From assembly GCA_937912225.1 (NCBI GenBank), contig CALDOJ010000036.1, forward strand, positions 31,191-95,190: 64,000 nt of DNA, read 5' to 3'. The stretch comes from Candidatus Woesearchaeota archaeon. Its GTDB lineage: Archaea; Nanobdellota; Nanobdellia; Woesearchaeales; GCA-2686295. The translations under genes and the position numbers were made by a program. Each line of letters begins with the position of its first letter. The first letter of the stretch is position 1. Below the pieces are notes generated by a model, which was not told the DNA's origin, ran no database searches, and worked only from the letters and a program-made list of their open reading frames with translations. Shown here one piece after another: positions 5,421 to 56,765 of the stretch.

Positions 5421-5462
5421 AAAATGAAAAAATTAATAAATGAATAAACAAAGGTGATACTT

Positions 5463-30925: not shown

Positions 30926-31921
30926 ATGGGAAAGAAAATTTTGATTTCAGTGTCTGCAGTGACTGGAATCATCGCATTATACTTAATTTTCAAAGTTATT
31001 CCATTCAATGAAGTTCTTAACACATTTAAATCTGCCAATCCACTAACCTTATTAGGTTTTTTATGTGTTTCTTTTGGTTTAATGGCAGTTCTTTCTTGGA
31101 AATGGAAAGTTGTACTAAGAAGCCAAAATGTGATTATTCCATTCAAACATTTATTTGCATACAGATTAATTGGTTATGGTGTAAGCTATTTAACTCCTTC
31201 AGCAAAACTTGGCGGAGAACCTGTTAGAGCAGCTTTATTAACCAGACATGATATGAAATTCTCAGAAGCATTATCTTCAGTAGTTATTGATAAAACCATA
31301 GAAGTTGCTTCATCAGCAATCTTTTTTTTTATTGGTGTAATGATAGTATTCTTTAGATTCGCACTACCAGGTCAAATTGAAGTTACTATGATTTTATTTG
31401 CAATTATATTCTTAGCATTAATGGTTTTTATGTACCAAAGAATGTCGTCAGGAAAAGGATTCATCGCAAGTTTTTGTAAATTATTACGTCTTCATAAAGT
31501 TAAAAAATGGGCTTTATCTGAAAAGAAATTAGAAGAATTTGAAAGTAGAATAATAAAGTTTTTCCAAGAAGATAAAAAAGATTTCTTACTTGCATTTTTT
31601 GCTTGTTTTATGTCATGGGTTTTTATGTTCTTTGAATATAAGTTTGCAGCACTAATACTAGGTTATAATCTTTCTTTTGTTGCAATATTCTTAATTATTA
31701 GTTTTGTTGGAGCAGCGTTTATCGTTCCAGTTCCAATGGCCATTGGTTCGTTAGAAGCCAGTCAAGTAGCTGTTTTTACAATGTTGGGTTTAAAGTCAGC
31801 TGCAGGTGTTGCGCTTGCGTTCATTATTAGAATCAGAGATTTATTATGGAGTATTACAGGATTATTACTTCTTAGTTATTATGGACTTAAAATAAGTCAA
31901 ACTTTAAAGAAAAAATTTTGA
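30926..31921 (+). CDS. Flippase-like / LPG-synthase-TM-like polytopic membrane protein
   Basis: About 8 TM segments. LIGYGVSYLTPSAKLGGEPVRAALL resembles the UPF0104/flippase-like family signature. Confidence 0.5.
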   Translation: MGKKILISVSAVTGIIALYLIFKVIPFNEVLNTFKSANPLTLLGFLCVSFGLMAVLSWKWKVVLRSQNVIIPFKHLFAYRLIGYGVSYLTPSAKLGGEPVRAALLTRHDMKFSEALSSVVIDKTIEVASSAIFFFIGVMIVFFRFALPGQIEVTMILFAIIFLALMVFMYQRMSSGKGFIASFCKLLRLHKVKKWALSEKKLEEFESRIIKFFQEDKKDFLLAFFACFMSWVFMFFEYKFAALILGYNLSFVAIFLIISFVGAAFIVPVPMAIGSLEASQVAVFTMLGLKSAAGVALAFIIRIRDLLWSITGLLLLSYYGLKISQTLKKKF

Positions 31922-38424: not shown

Positions 38425-39210
38425 TTACTTTTTCAAAAGAATTCCAACAGGACAATGGTCACTTCCCATTACTTCTTGCAAGATAAATGCATCTTTTAAT
38501 TTCTTCTCTAAAACCTTTGAAACAAGAAAATAATCTATCCTCCAACCGACATTATTTGCTCGAGCATTAAACATGTAACTCCACCAAGAATATTCATGCT
38601 CTTTATTAGGGTAAAAATATCTGAATGTGTCAATTAAACCTGCTTCTAAATGTTTTGTCATGCCAAGTCTTTCAGTATCTGAGAATCCTGCATTTCCAGG
38701 TTTTGTTGCGGTTGTCATATTTGACTTAGGATTCTTCAAATCAATTTCTTTATGAGCAACATTTAAATCACCACAAATAATAACTGGTTTCTTATTTTCT
38801 AAACCTTTGACAAATTTTCTAAAATCATCATCCCATTTTTTTCGATAAGAAAGTCTTAAAAGTTCTCGCTTAGAATTTGGTGTATAAACATTCACTAAAA
38901 AGAACTCATCATATTCTAAAGTTAGAACTCGACCTTCAGCATCATGTTCTTCAATCGCCATTCCATACATTACTGATGACGGCTTGACTTTTGAAAATAC
39001 TGCAGTTCCAGAATAACCTTTTTTCTCTGCAGAGTTCCAGAAATGATGAGGATATTTATCTAACACCAAATCAACTTGATCAGGATGAGCTTTTGTTTCT
39101 TGAATACACAAAACATCAGGATCTTCCTTTTTTACAAAGTCTAAGAATCCTTTTTTTAAGGCTGCTCGAATTCCATTTACATTCCAAGAAATAAGTTTCA
39201 TATTTGTCAT
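38425..39210 (-). CDS. xth: Exodeoxyribonuclease III (AP endonuclease)
   Basis: SWNVNGIRA, LCIQETK, GDLNVAH, GSDHCPV. Confidence 0.9.
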   Translation of the reverse strand: MTNMKLISWNVNGIRAALKKGFLDFVKKEDPDVLCIQETKAHPDQVDLVLDKYPHHFWNSAEKKGYSGTAVFSKVKPSSVMYGMAIEEHDAEGRVLTLEYDEFFLVNVYTPNSKRELLRLSYRKKWDDDFRKFVKGLENKKPVIICGDLNVAHKEIDLKNPKSNMTTATKPGNAGFSDTERLGMTKHLEAGLIDTFRYFYPNKEHEYSWWSYMFNARANNVGWRIDYFLVSKVLEKKLKDAFILQEVMGSDHCPVGILLKK

Positions 39211-41003: not shown

Positions 41004-42293
41004 CTATATTAAGAATTCTTCTCGCTCACTTCTTTCAGAAAGTTCTCCTCTTAAATTCTTTTCAAATAATTCTTTGACGTCTTTTTTATGATTCGATAAT
41101 AACCATGCAAGCTTGATAAATGCTGTTTCTGGAGTCATGTCTGAATAATTTCCAATCACTCCTGCTTTAATTAAATCTCTTCCAGGAGAATAAACATTCA
41201 TGTCAATTCTTCCATAAATTGTTTGAGGCGCAACTACTACAGGCATTTTTTTAGCTAAGCTTTGAACTGCTTTCAAAATTTTCTCATTTTCACCAGTGAA
41301 TTCATCAACTTTCATACTCGGAATATGGCCTATTCCTAAAAGTTCAATAACTAATCCATCAAAGTTTTTGAAAGCTTCAAATTCAGAAGCATACATGTGA
41401 ACATGAGGTTTAATTAAACCAATTTTTAATTTTTCATCAAATAATTTAAGAGTTAATTTTTTCTTTAAATCTTTCTTTTCATAAGTTGTTGCAAAAGTCA
41501 CAGTTTCTTTTTCATAATTAATTCTTGCAATTGGACCTGCATTAATTGGTCTAAAAGCATCTCTTCTTGAAGTATGCATTTTTCGAACTTTAGTTCCAGG
41601 CAAAATCCAACAAATTTTATCATTAGTATTTTCATGCATACAAACTCCAACTCCAGAAAAATCCGTCTTAGTAATAAACAATGCAGCTGATAAAAGATTC
41701 ATTGCTGAATCAGTACTTCCTCGGTCAGAACTTCGTTGACTTCCAACAATTATAACTGGAATTCCAAGTCCTTCAAAAGCAAATGAAAGAGCAGCTGAAG
41801 TATAATGAATAGTATCTGTTCCTTGAGTCAAAATAATTCCATCAACTCCTTTTTTTACTTCTTCAGCAACCGCTTTAGCTAAAATATTATAATGAGGAAA
41901 ACGCATCATTTCTGATTGCATATTTCTTACAAGTTTACTTTTAATATTTGCTAAACCTTTAATTTCAGGAAACAAATTTAGTAAATCATCCTCTGTAAAC
42001 TTTGCAATTACAGCGCCTGTTGAATAATCAACTTTTGAAGCAATAGTTCCACCAGTATGAAGTATAGAAATGGTTTTTAAACCTTTTTTCATTACAGGTT
42101 TTGAACTTTTCTCAGAAATTTCTTTATATTTTTTTAAGACTTCAATCTTTTTAATTTCAGATTTTTTCAAACCAACATTATATCCGCTAACTAATTTTAA
42201 GAAAATAATGTTTGAATCTTCTTCAGGCATTAAAACACCTTCTAAAACATCATTTTTACAGAATACTTTTACCTTATCACCTACGTTAGCCAT
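41004..42293 (-). CDS. gatD: Glu-tRNA(Gln) amidotransferase subunit D (asparaginase-like)
   Basis: ILHTGGTIASKVDYSTGAV, LTQGTDTIHYT. Ends with TAG directly abutting gatE. Confidence 0.9.
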   Translation of the reverse strand: MANVGDKVKVFCKNDVLEGVLMPEEDSNIIFLKLVSGYNVGLKKSEIKKIEVLKKYKEISEKSSKPVMKKGLKTISILHTGGTIASKVDYSTGAVIAKFTEDDLLNLFPEIKGLANIKSKLVRNMQSEMMRFPHYNILAKAVAEEVKKGVDGIILTQGTDTIHYTSAALSFAFEGLGIPVIIVGSQRSSDRGSTDSAMNLLSAALFITKTDFSGVGVCMHENTNDKICWILPGTKVRKMHTSRRDAFRPINAGPIARINYEKETVTFATTYEKKDLKKKLTLKLFDEKLKIGLIKPHVHMYASEFEAFKNFDGLVIELLGIGHIPSMKVDEFTGENEKILKAVQSLAKKMPVVVAPQTIYGRIDMNVYSPGRDLIKAGVIGNYSDMTPETAFIKLAWLLSNHKKDVKELFEKNLRGELSERSEREEFLI

Positions 42294-42400: not shown

Positions 42401-42512
42401 TAACCATAATAACTTGATTTATCAGTTCCAACCCTTATCAGCGTTGACGGAACTAGCTCTCTGCTAGGTCGCGATGCAAAAAAAGCATCTAACCATAATA
42501 ACTTGGTTTATC
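42401..42512. repeat. 23-bp direct repeat duplicating the cdc48 3' end, bracketing a GC-rich hairpin element
   Basis: TAACCATAATAACTTGATTTATC (42401-42423) versus TAACCATAATAACTTGGTTTATC (42490-42512), 1 mismatch. The 66-nt interior is about 54% GC and contains AGTTCC...GGAACT, CTAGC-TCTCT-GCTAG and GATGC-A7-GCATC. Confidence 0.6.
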
Positions 42513-44765
42513 TTCTTGCATGCTTTTTGCATGAGCGCTTGTGAAATGATCTTTAAGTTTTTCATAAGCCTCGGCAATATCTTTAGTGGCACTTGGTCTA
42601 ACTTTTTTCAATGCTTCTTCAAAGAAAGCCATTTTTACAGTTTTAGCTTTCATATCATCTCTTAAAGCCATGATTGCTGCTTCTCTACAAACAGCTTCAA
42701 GATCTGCACCTACATATCCTTCGGTTTTATCGACTAACTTTTTCAAATCAAAATCTTTTGCTAATGGCATTCCTTTAGTATGAACTTTAAAGATTGCATT
42801 TCTGCTTCCTTTATCAGGAACAGGTGCTAAAACAATTCTATCAAATCTTCCTGGACGAAGAAGAGCAGTATCAAGCATGTCAGGTCTATTCGTTGCAGCA
42901 ATTATTACAACATCATTTAAATCTTGTAAACCATCCATTTCAGTTAAAAGTTGATTAACAACTCTTTCATTAACTTTTGAGTCAGCACTATCACTTCTTT
43001 TATGAGCCATAGAATCAATTTCATCAAAGAAAATTATTGTTGGAGATGTTTGTCTTGCTTTTTCAAAGATTTTTCTAACAGCTTTTTCACTTTCACCAAC
43101 CCACTTACTTAAAAGTTCAGGTCCTTTAACAAGAATAAAGTTTGCTTCACTTTCAGTTGCAACAGCTTTTGCAAGCAAAGTTTTACCAGTACCTGGTGCT
43201 CCATAAAGAAGAACTCCTCGAGGAGGTGTAATTCCCAATCTTGAAAAAGCTTCTTTTTTCTTCAAAGGCCATTCAACAGCTTCAATAAGTTCTTGTTTAA
43301 CTTCTTCTAAACCGCCAATATCAGTCCATTTAATATTTGGAATTTCAATTAATACTTCTCTCATAGCACTAGGTCTTACGACTTTTAATGATTCTTTAAA
43401 ATCATCTTGAGATAACTTTAATTTTTCAAGAACTTCTTGAGGAATTGTTTTCTCATCTTCAAGTTCTAGATCAGGAAGAACTCGTCTTAAAACAATCATA
43501 GCAGCTTCTCTTGCAAGAGCTGAAAGATCAGCACCTACAAACCCATGAGTTATTTCAGCCATTCGTTTTAAATTAACATTTTTATTAAGAGGCATGTTTC
43601 TAGTATGAATTTGTAAAATTTTATGTCGTCCTTCTTTTTGTGGAACACCAATTTCAATTTCTCGATCAAACCTACCAGGTCTTCGAAGTGCAGGATCAAG
43701 CGAGTTTGGAATGTTTGTTGCTGCAATTACAACTACTTTTCCTCGACTTTTTAACCCATCCATTAAAGCTAATAACTGAGCAACAACTCTTCTCTCTACT
43801 TCGCCTTTGCTTTCTTCTCGCTTAGAAGCAATAGCGTCAATTTCATCAATAAAAATTATTGAAGGACCATTCTTTTCTGCTTCTTCAAACTTCTTTCTAA
43901 GATTCTCTTCACTCTGACCATAATATTTACTCATAATTTCAGGACCATTAATTAAAAGAAAATTAGCATTTGTTTCATTAGCAACAGCTTTTGCTAACAA
44001 AGTTTTACCAGTTCCTGGAGGACCATGAAGCAGTACTCCTTTTGGTGGTTCAATTCCAAGAGTTTCAAAAACTTCAGGATGTTTTAATGGTAATTCAACC
44101 ATTTCTCTAACTTTTTTAATTTCAGATTCAAGTCCACCAACATCTTCATATGAAATATCAAAAACTTTTTCTTCTTGAACTTCAACTGATTCTGTTGAGT
44201 ATTTTACTTCTGTATGTTCTGTGATTAAAACTGCTTGTTTTGGATTTGCATCAGTTACGATGAATTTTAAATCTCCAAGACCAAAGCCCATCATAGTATC
44301 ATCAAGCATTGAAAACATATCATCAAAGAAAGGGTTACTAGACATAGTGTTTCTTCTTCTTTTAGTTCCGCCAAGCGAAACAATGTCTCCTTTCATAACT
44401 GCTCGTCCTAAAAGTCCTTTTTTGAAAATCTCAGGATTTGCTCGTACCATCACACCTTTTCGAGCTGGCGCAATAGTGATTTTTTTAGCTTCTTTAACAT
44501 CAACTTTTTTGACAGTAACCATTTCACCAATAGTTGTTTTAGCATTTCTTCTAATTAAACCGTCCATTCGAATCATGTTTAAACCAATATCTCCTGGTAG
44601 CGCCCTATCAGCTATTGCAACAGTAACTCTAGCACCATTAATTTCAACAATGTTTCCAGGTCTAATATCTAATTCTCGTAAGAAAGAACTATCAACTCTA
44701 ACAATTCCTTTGTTAACATCTTCTTGTATTGCTTCAGCAACTTTAAGTCTAATTTCGTTTGTAAT
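42489..44765 (-). CDS. cdc48: Cdc48/VAT-type tandem AAA+ ATPase
   Basis: Two Walker [16 protein letters not shown] / [15 protein letters not shown] and two DEID Walker B. The N-domain ([21 protein letters not shown]...GLNMIRMDG) is encoded upstream of the first ATG (44576). Proposed ATT start at 44763-44765 after GAGGGG. Ends with TAG. Confidence 0.85.
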
Positions 44766-44785
44766 GGTTATCCCCTCAAATAAAT

Positions 44786-44981
44786 ATTTTTGATGACTTT
44801 AGAGAATAAATAACTCTTTAAATTCTTTTTGGTTTAATGACTCCATTCTTTAAGAAAAATCATTATCCAAAAAAAGAATATTTTTGATTTAATGACTCCA
44901 TTCTTTAAAAAAAGTCATTATCCAAAAAAGAACTTTTTTGGTTTAATAACTGATTTCTTTAAAAAAAACTAAAAGAAATAG
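44786..44981. repeat. About 3.5 tandem copies of a ~55-bp unit upstream of cdc48, each with an internal palindrome
   Basis: Units start near 44786 (partial), 44826, 44881 and 44934. Unit 2 carries TAATGACT (44890-44897)-N15-AGTCATTA (44913-44920). Unit 1 carries TAATGA/TCATTA. Confidence 0.7.
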
Positions 44982-45011: not shown

Positions 45012-45416
45012 TTATTGTTGTTTAAGCTTTGGTAATGGGATTGGTGCTGGTAGGCCCAGATCTTTACTTAAGATTAAAGCTTGAATATTGCATTTGTTAA
45101 GAACATTGTTCATAACTTGGTTTGTTGCTTCTTTAGGAATAGATTTGTTCTTTTTCCAAGAATCAAGAACTTCTTTAGCTGTTTTTTCATCAGATAACAA
45201 TACTAATTCGCCATTTAATTCTATATTTCCAATTCCAGGTTCATATTTTGAAGTGTATTGAAAAGTAAACTTCATTGCTTTTTGGTCACCACCAATTGCT
45301 AATTTTGCTTCTTTAACATCTTTAATAGTAACATTATTACTAATGCTAACTTTACCTGTAACAGGAAGTTTTTTTTCAATCATCATTTTTGTGAAATTTA
45401 ATCCAACTATTGCCAT
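45012..45416 (-). CDS. Hypothetical protein, possibly SecB-like fold
   Basis: The order of beta-rich N-half and C-terminal helix (VMNNVLNKCNIQALILSKDLGLPAPIPLP) loosely parallels SecB. Weak by-eye call. Confidence 0.25.
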   Translation of the reverse strand: MAIVGLNFTKMMIEKKLPVTGKVSISNNVTIKDVKEAKLAIGGDQKAMKFTFQYTSKYEPGIGNIELNGELVLLSDEKTAKEVLDSWKKNKSIPKEATNQVMNNVLNKCNIQALILSKDLGLPAPIPLPKLKQQ

Positions 45417-50960: not shown

Positions 50961-52277
50961 TTATTCGAAAATTTTCTCTTTTTTATGTAGAGCAGATGGA
51001 GCTTCTCCTCCATGCCAAGTAAATCTTGGCCTGATTCTTATAGGATACATCTTCTCGTTAGTATCATCAAATATAATTGCAGAACCTTTTTCTCTAGGAA
51101 GATCATTTAATTGAGTTACTAAACCTTCACGCATATAAGACTGCATCAACATACCAAGTGCTTCAGTATCAAGCTTTGCAGTAATTCTATGAGCAATAAC
51201 AGTATCTGACTGAGTCATAACATCAGTATGAATTTTTCCTGGTTGCTGTGTTGCAAGAATTAAAGAAATTCCTGGTTGTCTTCCTTCTCTAAGAATTGTT
51301 ACAAGAGGGTCTGTTGCAGTAGTTTTTCCTTCTAATGGTAAAAATTCATGAGCTTCATCAATAACAAGCCATACAAGAGGAGATTCTTGTTTCTTAATTG
51401 CTTCATCTCCAAAGTAATTTACTGATTTATGAATGTCATGATACTCTTCTGATTTTCTAGCAACCATTCTTTCAATAAAAAGTTTTTGAGCAACTAAACC
51501 AATAACTAAATTCTTTATATTCCAAGAACCAGGCATTGTTGCATAACAAGATACATCTAAAACAGTTACTTGTCCACCTTTTGCTAAGTCACTAAGCGAA
51601 GTTCCTTCTTCATCAAAAACACCCCAATTATTTGCGTTCAAAAATTGATTTTTGGCAGCATTCTTTACTGAAGTATCAGCATCTTTGTTTTGCTTAATTG
51701 CAGAAAGTATATCTTTCATACTAAAGTCATCATTGTTTTCTTTTAAGTCGTGAATAACTGATTCAATTAATACACCAACTGGTTCGTGAGGACTAATTCC
51801 AAACGAGATGTTCCAATCTTCAGCATTTAATTCTGAAGGTTTTATTGAGAAAGGATGATCGGTTGGGATACCTTCATCTTTATATTTTTGATAGTAACCA
51901 ACAGGAGTGTATATTTGAACATCTAAACCTTTACCTTCTAGTTTCCATTCATCCAACAAATCTTTATCTTTCTTATTAGGATATTTCATAGTCCAATAAA
52001 TACCCATGGTATCAAGCATGATAACAGATATATTTTGTTTAATGTCTTTTGGCAAATTAGCCATACCTTCTGCAATAACACCCATAGTGTAAGATTTTCC
52101 GGATCCTCTCTTACCACATACAAAAATAACGTGTGAACGAACCATATCTAAAAAAACTTGATTAGAAAGAGAGGTAGTTCGACCCATCTTAACATAATGT
52201 TTTGCTAACAAAATAGTTCCTTCTGTTCCAAACTTTCTTTTGTCAGATTCACTTCGACCAACAACTATATCATACAT
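50961..52277 (-). CDS. HerA-like (DUF87-type) P-loop ATPase
   Basis: Walker A GKRGSGKSYT, Walker B WLVIDEAHEF, LILATQQP. A promoter-like AAATATTTATATT lies 22 nt upstream of the ATG. Confidence 0.75.
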   Translation of the reverse strand: MYDIVVGRSESDKRKFGTEGTILLAKHYVKMGRTTSLSNQVFLDMVRSHVIFVCGKRGSGKSYTMGVIAEGMANLPKDIKQNISVIMLDTMGIYWTMKYPNKKDKDLLDEWKLEGKGLDVQIYTPVGYYQKYKDEGIPTDHPFSIKPSELNAEDWNISFGISPHEPVGVLIESVIHDLKENNDDFSMKDILSAIKQNKDADTSVKNAAKNQFLNANNWGVFDEEGTSLSDLAKGGQVTVLDVSCYATMPGSWNIKNLVIGLVAQKLFIERMVARKSEEYHDIHKSVNYFGDEAIKKQESPLVWLVIDEAHEFLPLEGKTTATDPLVTILREGRQPGISLILATQQPGKIHTDVMTQSDTVIAHRITAKLDTEALGMLMQSYMREGLVTQLNDLPREKGSAIIFDDTNEKMYPIRIRPRFTWHGGEAPSALHKKEKIFE

Positions 52278-52334: not shown

Positions 52335-52796
52335 TTACTCGCCAAGAATATTGATTGCAACATGCCTTTTACTTTTCAAAGGTCTAGGACAAGGACCATC
52401 AAATTCTGCAAAGATAATTCTTTGATATTTTCCAAGGTCAAGTTTTCCTTCATATAAAGAAATTGTTTCACTGTTTCTAGAATAAAGAGCTGCTTTAATA
52501 TGACTATGAGCATTAGGTGGTTCATCTTCAGGACAATTTCTTTTACTAACATCATTATGAAGATAATCCTTATGACTTGGAGCAACTTCATTCAAATAAT
52601 ACTCTAAATCTTTCAAAAGTCTTTCTTCATATTCATTAACCATTATGCCAGTTGTAGTGTGCATTGCTTGAACTAAAACTTGACCATTTTCTTTTCCAGA
52701 CTTTTTAATTTCTTCAAGAACTAAATCAGTAATATCTGTTAATTGTGTGTGATGTTCAGTTTCTAATTTTAAAATTGTTCTATACATATCAAACAT
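52335..52796 (-). CDS. YjbQ/UPF0047 family (secondary thiamine-phosphate synthase-like)
   Basis: HTTTGIMVNEYE, NAHSHIKAAL, GKYQRIIFAEFDG. Confidence 0.7.
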   Translation of the reverse strand: MFDMYRTILKLETEHHTQLTDITDLVLEEIKKSGKENGQVLVQAMHTTTGIMVNEYEERLLKDLEYYLNEVAPSHKDYLHNDVSKRNCPEDEPPNAHSHIKAALYSRNSETISLYEGKLDLGKYQRIIFAEFDGPCPRPLKSKRHVAINILGE

Positions 52797-55053: not shown

Positions 55054-55105
55054 GCGATATGTTTATAAAGTATATAACATTCACAATAGTTACTTTATGT
55101 GAAAT

Positions 55106-55262
55106 GGTCCTTTTTTGAGGGAAGCATTATGCTTTGCTATGAGATCAAGACACTCTTACATAAACCAGCCCGACACAGAGAGTAACTTAACGGAGCACGA
55201 CATTAGTCAAGCAATGAGTTTGAGCGTTGGTGCCTCGGGCAACATAACTTTTCAAGTTATGA
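55106..55262. ncRNA. Candidate structured RNA of unknown class (GC-rich island in a 460-nt gap)
   Basis: 55161-55240 is 41/80 GC by hand count against a ~30% background. Long-range complement GCCCGA (55168-55173)/TCGGGC (55235-55240). Local hairpin GAAGC-ATTAT-GCTTT. No convincing ORF. Confidence 0.3.
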
Positions 55263-55514
55263 AAAAAAACAATAATGTTCATTAATCATAGAACAAGTTC
55301 ACTATCATTCATTTATCACACAGTACCAAAGTATTTTGAATAGTAAAAAACTTGTTCTAAGAAAAAGTATAACTTATCATAATTATTTCATTTAAAATTA
55401 GTAAATAATCAGAGATTACCAATAGAGATAACAAAGACGATAAAACAACAAAAAGTTGTACTTTTTCTAAAAAAAAGCTTAGTGAATTATAAATTTAAAA
55501 GGAGGTCATTAAAA

Positions 55515-56765
55515 ATGGCAAAAATAGCACAAGTTGCAGCAAAATATATTGTTCATGCAAACATAAATATAGAAGGAGTCGTAGATAAACCAGATGTAAT
55601 AGGCGCAATCTTCGGACAAACAGAAGGATTATTAGGAGCTGATTTAGAATTAAGAGAGCTTCAAAGATCAGGAAGAATTGGTAGAATTGAAGTAAACGTT
55701 GAAACTAAAGGCGGTAAAACAACAGGAGAAATAATAATTCCTAGTTCATTAGACAAAGCTGAAACAGCAATTGTTGGAGCAGCTTTAGAAATTATTCAAA
55801 GAATTGGTCCTTGTAACGCAAAGATCAAAGTTGAAGGCATTGAAGATATTAGAATTTCAAAGAGACAATTCGTTATCGAGAGAGCAAAAGAACTTTTAAA
55901 AAACTTAATGGATGGAGTATTACCAGATTCACAAGAATTAGCTGATGAAGTAGCTTATTCAGTAAGAATTATGGAAATACAAGAATATGGTAAAGAAAGA
56001 TTACCTGCAGGACCAGGCATTGAAGATAGCGAAGAAATAATTCTTGTTGAAGGAAGAGCAGATGTTTTAACTCTTTTAAAACACGGTTTTAAAAACGCGA
56101 TTGCTATGAACGGAACAAGTGTTCCACAAACAATTATAGAACTTTGTAAAACAAAAGAAATAACTGTTTTCGTTGATGGAGATAGAGGGGGAGATCTTAT
56201 TATAAAAGAACTTTTCAACGTAGCGGAAGTTGACTTTGTTACAAAAGCTCCTGACGGAAAAGAAGTAGAAGAATTAACACAAAAAGAAATCCATAAAGCT
56301 TTAAGAAGTAAAGTTGCAGCAGAACAAGCTAAACTAGAAACAAAAGTAGCTCCTTCTCAAACTAGAGAAAAACCTGCACCTGCAAAACCATTTGAAAGAC
56401 GAAATGAAAAATTTTCAAGACCAGTTGCAAGAACTGAAGAAAGTAAACCCGCAGCTAAAGTTGAGAAGAAAAAACTTTCTTCTAAAGAAAAAGAGTCTTT
56501 TAATGGAATGTTAGAAGACCTTATTGGAACAAGAGGCGCTTATGTTTTAGATGAGAGTCTTAATATTTTAGGAAAAGTTCCTGTTTCAGAACTTCAAAGT
56601 ACAATTAGAAGTTTAAGATCTGGAATTTATGCCGTTATCTTAGATGGAACAATTGAAAAAGACCTTGTAAGCATTGCTGAAAGAGCAAATGTTAATATTT
56701 TAGTAGCAATGGATTGCAAAGTTAAATCTACAAGAGTTCAAATATTTACAGGCGACGACTTGTAA
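55515..56765 (+). CDS. dnaG: Archaeal DnaG (Toprim) primase-like/exosome-associated protein
   Basis: AKYIVHANI..GVVDKPDVIGAIFGQTEGLLG, ILVEGRADV, VFVDGDRGGDLI. ATG 55515 follows GGAGGTCAT. Confidence 0.9.
   Translation: MAKIAQVAAKYIVHANINIEGVVDKPDVIGAIFGQTEGLLGADLELRELQRSGRIGRIEVNVETKGGKTTGEIIIPSSLDKAETAIVGAALEIIQRIGPCNAKIKVEGIEDIRISKRQFVIERAKELLKNLMDGVLPDSQELADEVAYSVRIMEIQEYGKERLPAGPGIEDSEEIILVEGRADVLTLLKHGFKNAIAMNGTSVPQTIIELCKTKEITVFVDGDRGGDLIIKELFNVAEVDFVTKAPDGKEVEELTQKEIHKALRSKVAAEQAKLETKVAPSQTREKPAPAKPFERRNEKFSRPVARTEESKPAAKVEKKKLSSKEKESFNGMLEDLIGTRGAYVLDESLNILGKVPVSELQSTIRSLRSGIYAVILDGTIEKDLVSIAERANVNILVAMDCKVKSTRVQIFTGDDL

Follow-up and report, generated by a model that had tools for sequence, protein, structure and literature searches.

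A cdc48 gene shared by a clade of Woesearchaeota probably initiates at ATT or ATA behind a Shine-Dalgarno-like site

The cdc48 gene carried by a 64,000-nucleotide stretch of DNA from an uncultivated Woesearchaeota archaeon (contig CALDOJ010000036.1, positions 31,191 to 95,190; hereafter the window, with positions counted from its first letter) encodes the beginning of its protein in a stretch that lacks any canonical start codon. Comparison with orthologous genes favours initiation at an ATT codon, at 44765-44763 on the minus strand, to which we attach a probability of roughly 65%; an ATA at 44771-44769 is regarded as a minor alternative. The window has ~29% GC, and its closest relatives are uncultivated archaea of the Woesearchaeota/DPANN. 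In the NCBI, JGI, ENA and Logan sources the gene has been called as a 695-aa protein (P0001), and the full-length sequence of the window (758 or 760 aa) was not found in a collection of 15 billion proteins.

Upstream of the called ATG (44576-44574) the cdc48 frame stays open for 74 codons, as far as a TAA at 44801-44799. A scripted check of every codon found no ATG, GTG, TTG or CTG among these 74; the only near-cognate codons present are of the ATT and ATA kinds, and they include the two named above. A preliminary description of the window had placed the TAA, the 74 open codons and the ATG at the same positions on the minus strand, had quoted the peptide encoded upstream, and had remarked on the lack of ATG, GTG and TTG. 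All of this was borne out, the peptide matching the translation exactly and the absence extending to CTG. With the base composition of the window, the chance of 74 stop-free codons is P = 0.0014, and that of 74 codons free of both stops and canonical starts is P = 3e-5. Judged by the gene's own rate of in-frame ATG, GTG and TTG codons (32 in 695), 63 coding codons without any of them have P ~0.05, so that the missing canonical start is only mildly unusual for a coding sequence. The window also has, upstream of ATG 55515, an open stretch of ~44 codons that is due to chance, and it is therefore homology, and not length, that carries the argument for cdc48. Of the ~47 genes of the window, none but cdc48 requires a non-canonical start. 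Loose use of start codons throughout the genome was considered as a general explanation and rejected: among the long open reading frames (ORFs) of the window, cdc48 alone has a long start-less coding stretch.

The product of the ATT-initiated gene matches the NCBIfam model TIGR01243 ('CDC48 family AAA ATPase') with 1085 bits, against a cut-off of 802.65, residues 5-741 aligning with positions 2-729 of the 733 in the profile. Pfam recognises in it a CDC48_N domain, a CDC48_2 domain, two AAA domains and two AAA_lid_3 domains; PF00004 and PF17862 each find two matching stretches, and the P-loops GPPGTGKT and GAPGTGKT are present in the translation. The start-less stretch corresponds to the first two thirds of the CDC48_N barrel. 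When translation is taken from ATT, PF02359 (CDC48_N) scores 86.8 bits and is covered from position 1 to position 84 of 85, while from the called ATG it scores 30 bits, below its cut-off of 35.1, and only profile positions 60-84 are represented. PF02933 (the CDC48_2 beta-clam) scores 35.5 bits with the ATT start. CDC48_N is complete only with the extension, and this upholds the earlier claim that the coding sequence of the N-domain lies upstream of the first canonical start. The N-domain of Thermoplasma VAT (1cz4) aligns over residues 5-140, residue 3 of the cdc48 product corresponding to residue 5 of VAT, which brings the two N-termini to within two residues of each other. Thermoplasma acidophilum VAT and archaeal Cdc48 (1cz4, 5g4f) have the same layout of an N-domain made up of double-psi barrel and beta-clam, followed by two AAA domains, and the C-terminus of the window protein (...KPSYYG) resembles the hydrophobic-Tyr-X motif of proteasome docking. 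The gene is likely, on these matches, to encode a complete 758-residue AAA+ unfoldase of the Cdc48/VAT type with the activity predicted for that family. Set beside VAT the protein itself appears ordinary, the start codon being its sole oddity. That cdc48 is essential, as was first stated, is an assumption.

The substitution pattern of the upstream stretch was compared with that of the remainder of the gene. Ratios of non-synonymous to synonymous substitution rates (dN/dS, by the NG86 method with nine relatives) were 0.03-0.11 for the 59 codons between the conserved N-terminal motif and Met64, the methionine of the called ATG, and 0.07-0.14 for the remainder. Between the window and a diverged strain (L086) the same 59 codons show seven synonymous changes and one non-synonymous change, and the upstream frame is open in every lineage. 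Because purifying selection acts on it as it does on the rest of the gene, the start-less stretch is judged to be translated. These results bear directly on the view that a truncated Cdc48 is made from ATG 44576 and that the sequence upstream is the decaying relic of a 5'-truncated gene, for which it can be said that every database gene caller gives the 695-aa product. A relic would be expected to show relaxed selection, stops or frameshifts, but dN/dS is as low as 0.03-0.11 and the frame is intact; the truncated product would keep just 25 profile positions, at the end of the barrel; and Met64 is replaced by Ile in relatives (GLNIIRMDG), with no Shine-Dalgarno (SD) site at a usable distance from the called ATG. 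Both dN/dS and domain completeness rule against such a relic, which we consider extremely improbable. Gene callers working on two related loci (L087 and L089) chose other Met or Val codons that are not homologous to Met64, and for this reason the truncated calls are best regarded as artefacts and the 695-aa protein as a mis-called truncation. The databases hold the window gene and those of at least two sister species as proteins of 695-719 aa, without most of the substrate/adaptor-binding N-domain, and a proteostasis capacity of DPANN archaea inferred from such truncated entries would mislead.

Orthologous loci were drawn from a scan of GTDB species representatives and a scan of metagenomes, and their codons were numbered from 0 at the first codon of the motif [ILV]-[KR]-L-K-V-A-E. 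In 87 distinct orthologues an ATG lies within codons -9 to -2, most commonly at -4 (MxxE[IL]KLKV), and the ATT of the window occupies this same codon position. Seven species-level lineages have ATT or ATA at -4, namely the window, L087/88, L173, L002, L171/172, L001/91 and L089/90/92, and three of the seven (the window, L087/88 and L089/90/92) are without any canonical start. The sequence reads TAG ATT AAA ATT ACT GAG AAT ATA AAA in L087/L088 (P0019, 84% identical) and TAA GAA AGG AGG CTG GTA AGA ATA GCT GAT GAG ATA AAA in L089/L090/L092 (P0013, P0014). The codon at -4 is ATT in L173; it is ATA in L002, which has an ATG at -6 as well, and also ATA in L171/172 and L001/91, where a TTG is found at -7. 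This TTG would make a poor start because it is part of an SD-like block and leaves zero spacing. The first two bases of the start codon, A and T, do not vary between the ATT, ATA and ATG lineages in the alignment (A1), and codon -4 is the only position that is near-cognate in all seven.

An SD-like block followed by a 4-nt spacer precedes the ATT or ATA in each of the seven lineages as judged by eye (an ungapped SD match gives a spacer of 5 nt for L087 and L089). The blocks are GAGGGGAT, GAGGTAGAT, GGAGTTGAT (in two lineages), GGGGTTGAT, GGGGTTGGT and GGAGGCTGGT. Where ATG orthologues have a recognisable SD, the spacer is 3-5 nt in 17 of 27, and ATT stands after GAGGGGAT in the window just as ATG stands after GGTGAT elsewhere. 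The ATT lies 4 nt after the full GAGGGGAT, 6 nt after GAGGGG and 8 nt after GAGG, and the last of these distances falls inside the 6-11 nt that separate GAGG from the start in the SD-led genes of the window. RNA structure at the cdc48 start is unremarkable, an 85-nt fold giving z = -0.88.

The preliminary description had singled out the ATT, with its SD-like site, as the best candidate, and had given the 6-nt spacer from GAGGGG; the spacer is correct, and alignment of the 5' regions of orthologues places the ATT at the orthologous start and reveals that ATT or ATA is common to a clade of seven lineages. The SD consensus that it used, GAGGTGAT, is roughly right, the sites that precede ~12 other genes of the window being of the GAGGT, GGAGG or AGGTGA type. 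It had also considered ATA 44771-44769, at codon -6, and initiation there, alone or alongside ATT, has some attractions. This codon is near-cognate, AUA can beat AUU in Escherichia coli extracts (PMC5499595), and two close relatives (P0011 and P0003) have N-termini of the form M-[IV]-T-I-G..., so that residues at -6 and -5 do occur in some annotated proteins. It is nevertheless disfavoured because it overlaps the SD block: it stands 2 nt from GAGG, against 6-11 nt in other genes of the window. L089 has GTA at the homologous codon -6 and L001 has GTT, and neither codon can initiate, while -4 alone is near-cognate throughout the seven lineages. Use of the ATA, from which the protein would begin (M)TITNEIRLK, seems unlikely, and initiation at AUU, with methionine, is the most likely course of events on this comparison.

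The same position has already been chosen by the NCBI pipeline for three orthologues of 82-85% identity: MBC8500693.1 (N-terminus MADEIKLKV, start ATA), MBC8495353.1 (MGGDIKLKV, ATA) and MFH1589364.1 (MSNEIKLKV, ATT), each of them annotated as starting at -4. Unlike these, the window gene is recorded just as the 695-aa form.

The ATT had originally been proposed with the proviso that a sequence error might be responsible, and an error of sequencing or assembly that made ATT out of ATG was accordingly considered. The exact 695-aa product is present on 19 contigs. In five of them (L081-L085) the 500 nt upstream of the called ATG are base-identical to the window, and these five derive from two ENA assemblies, one Logan assembly, one JGI assembly and NCBI GCA_041294365.1, with differing pipelines and samples. 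The diverged strain L086 has ten differences upstream and retains both SD and ATT, and six other species have ATT or ATA at the same position. Agreement between independent assemblies, together with the strain variant, rules out an error, the chance of which we put as close to nil. L086 (Logan SRR36361186) deserves a remark of its own: compared with the window over 42489-44765, it has eight substitutions in the 59 codons that follow the motif and two in the other 695, and it also differs in the upstream spacer. So sharp a boundary suggests either recombination between strains or a mosaic contig.

Several considerations tell against a start at ATT. The SD departs from the consensus at one position, and the 3' end of the organism's 16S rRNA lies outside the window. 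In the four lineages with TTG at -7 or ATG at -6, conservation of ATT or ATA at -4 would be expected also of an internal Ile. The third base is never G in the seven lineages, but this is not significant at ~29% GC, and no claim of selection for a weak start is based on it. Archaeal start codons are given as AUG, GUG and UUG (PMC7531240), and the initiation factor aIF1 is reported to discriminate against non-canonical codons (PMC6237735). A search of the literature on start codons in DPANN archaea found nothing. In Haloferax volcanii, near-cognate codons made up ~30% of the putative alternative initiation sites located by ribosome profiling with harringtonine, and were set aside by the authors (PMC7261190). 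In bacteria near-cognate codons have ~1-2% of the activity of AUG in vivo, and AUA can do well in vitro (PMC5499595).

Initiation at ATT might proceed as follows. The SD-like GAGGGGAU would pair with the 3' end of 16S rRNA and set AUU, 4 nt downstream, in the P site, with the geometry that is used for AUG in the orthologues; initiator Met-tRNA would then read AUU despite a mismatched third base, and the product would be expected to begin (M)TNEIRLK. Such initiation would presumably be weaker than at AUG, a reduced efficiency that we infer. In a neighbour-joining tree the seven ATT/ATA lineages are monophyletic, their sister lineages have GTG and more distant ones have ATG. Because they form one clade placed in this way, the change from ATG to ATA or ATT is most simply explained as a single old event: the ancestral ATG would have become ATA or ATT once, in the ancestor of this Woesearchaeota clade, and have been retained since. 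The weak start may be adaptive, as a throttle or a sensor of stringency, or may have been tolerated under AT-biased drift. That the AUU/AUA start is a selected translational throttle is a rather doubtful proposition; if true, it would be an archaeal counterpart, acting on a protein-quality-control machine, of the infC and eIF1/eIF5 circuits. ATG is also avoided as the cdc48 start in the wider tree, with TTG in L093 and GTG in L095, L174 and L177. In L096 (around 1185-1205) the gene may start at CTG (GAGGTGAACAAA CTG GTT GTT AAA), which is suspected because its in-frame GTG lies within the SD. Such avoidance of ATG, in favour of GTG, TTG and possibly CTG, fits with selection for weak initiation.

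Start-codon exceptions to which cdc48 might be added are known from bacteria. All infC genes start at AUU or AUC, which serves the autoregulation of IF3, and E. coli pcnB also starts at AUU (PMC5499595). These genes resemble cdc48 in being conserved housekeeping genes whose sole usable start is AUU (or AUC) after an SD, the codon being kept among species (PMC5499595). IF3 rejects AUU, however, and infC thereby represses itself, whereas Cdc48 has no known role in start-codon choice and the window organism is an archaeon, with aIF1, aIF1A and aIF2 and not IF3. The comparison with infC is one of analogy only, of functional resemblance, and implies no autoregulatory loop: Cdc48 is neither an initiation factor nor a start-codon fidelity factor, and the sequence holds no hint of such a loop. 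In the Deinococcaceae dnaA (ATC) and rpsL (CTG) have clade-specific starts that were proven by N-terminal proteomics (PMC2830850). These too are core genes whose starts were noticed through conserved N-termini upstream of canonical start codons (PMC2830850), but they are bacterial and experimentally verified, while the cdc48 case is archaeal and known from comparison alone. The Haloferax volcanii results indicate that archaeal ribosomes can start at near-cognate codons (PMC7261190); those sites are alternative or extra ones, whereas in cdc48 a main ORF would depend entirely on the near-cognate codon for its start, and that codon is conserved across species. By this reasoning cdc48 would be a new archaeal case among exceptions of a known class, and its main consequence is a corrected annotation, the same -4 call being already made by the NCBI pipeline in the three relatives. 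As a main ORF for which AUU or AUA appears to be the only possible start, with a geometry from SD to start that is invariant over seven species, it offers a clean natural test case for near-cognate initiation with the aIF1/aIF2 machinery of archaea.

The features discussed here, and others in the region upstream of cdc48, are collected in Table 1.

Table 1. Features of the cdc48 locus, with positions in the window
Feature	Position	Strand	Basis
Proposed full-length cdc48 coding sequence, 758 codons plus stop, from ATT	42489..44765	-	translation, TIGR01243, Pfam
ATT, likeliest initiation codon, codon -4 relative to the I-[KR]-L-K-V-A-E motif	44763..44765	-	orthologue start position, SD spacing
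SD-like GAGGGGAT, 7/8 matches to GAGGTGAT	44770..44777	-	sequence
ATA, alternative near-cognate start, codon -6, disfavoured (SD overlap)	44769..44771	-	sequence, comparison
Called ATG, Met64 of the full protein, not conserved as start	44574..44576	-	public gene callers
CDC48_N double-psi beta-barrel, residues 6-89 of the ATT-initiated protein	44499..44750	-	PF02359, 1cz4 alignment
In-frame TAA closing the cdc48 frame upstream	44799..44801	-	sequence
15-codon mini-ORF, ATG 44846 to TAA 44799, in the cdc48 frame, within the last repeat copy	44799..44846	-	sequence
TATA-like box TTTAAAGA, ~50 nt upstream of ATT, presumed promoter	44815..44822	-	likeness to relatives
55-bp tandem repeat, 2.6 copies, 86% identity, between the 134-aa ORF and cdc48	44826..44968	-	sequence
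Conserved 134-aa ORF, family not assigned, directly upstream of cdc48	45012..45416	-	gene tables of related loci

The TATA-like box has counterparts in L089 and L171, where similar TTTATAAA(G/T)AG...TTTATTGC elements lie 46-47 nt upstream of ATA. Their placement suggests that the cdc48 mRNA has a leader, of ~25 nt, and depends on its SD for initiation; the gene does not have the arrangement of a leaderless one, with a TATA box ~25-30 nt upstream and no SD. The stop codon of the upstream gene is 27-85 nt from codon -4 in relatives and 246 nt from it in the window, the greater distance being due to a 55-bp unit repeated 2.6 times. Because relatives have just 27-85 nt at this point, the repeat is taken to have enlarged the region upstream of cdc48 in this lineage specifically. 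A TATA-like box, TTTTTTAAAGAA, is found in every full copy, and two copies have ATG-led mini-ORFs. It is a matter of speculation that the repeat might add promoters in the lineage whose start context is weakest.

The in-frame mini-ORF in the last repeat copy raises the possibility that ribosomes are delivered to the cdc48 start by an upstream ORF, through reinitiation or readthrough of TAA from the mini-ORF, or from the 132-aa gene in relatives; cdc48 could then dispense with a canonical start. The mini-ORF ends 33 nt before ATT, and the upstream gene of L002, L173, L001 and L087 has its stop 27-37 nt ahead of codon -4, distances that lend the idea some appeal. In L171 and L089, however, the distance is 76-85 nt, and in the window it is the 246 nt given above; the mini-ORF belongs to a lineage-specific repeat, is without an SD and is absent from relatives; and a promoter at the TATA-like box (44822-44815) would leave the ATG of the mini-ORF outside the mRNA. 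Reinitiation would still need to select ATT or ATA. Delivery from upstream is for these reasons very improbable, and the mini-ORF, which is not conserved, probably has no role. Frameshifting from an overlapping ORF was also considered and rejected, as the other canonical codons near the start are just an out-of-frame TTG (a 3-codon ORF) and the in-frame mini-ORF ATG 44846, and no ORF there could lead ribosomes into the cdc48 frame.

The order of genes around cdc48 is a conserved ORF of 132-134 aa, cdc48, then gatD and gatE. The short ORF adjoins cdc48 in every related locus whose upstream flank was examined, and was located at 888-1286 in L087, 900-1298 in L089, 135-533 in L171 and 46-444 in L174. 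Its product ends in a conserved tail of the LPAPIPLPK[LM]K type. No match to the 134-aa ORF of the window was found in Pfam, NCBIfam or the PDB, and a single-sequence AlphaFold model had a pLDDT of 38 and was unusable. The product could be a partner of Cdc48 or an operon mate.

The remaining observations concern initiation elsewhere in the window. The other ORF that had been flagged, at 55383-56765, starts at a normal SD-led ATG, 55515 (aaaaggaggtcattaaaa ATG), and not at the GTG 55482 from which it is listed. Listed 'GTG starts' at 5454, 20602, 29736, 53575 and 55482 are the GGTGA(T) of an SD, as in AAAGGTGATACTT and TAGGTGATAATA. Many genes of the window have a TTTATATA-like box ~25-30 nt before ATG and no SD, examples being those at 30926, 38425-39210, 41004-42293, 47041, 50961-52277 and 52335-52796. 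Such an arrangement suggests leaderless mRNAs. Genes within operons carry GAGGT or GGAGG sites, and the genome appears to mix leaderless and SD-led initiation. Immediately before ATG 55515 there is a gene-free spacer of 460 nt (55054-55514, plus strand) with a GC-richer core at 55095-55275. The spacer matched no Rfam family at E<=1, and its folding gave z = -2.33 for the plus strand and z = -1.45 for the minus strand; it may be an undescribed structured RNA.

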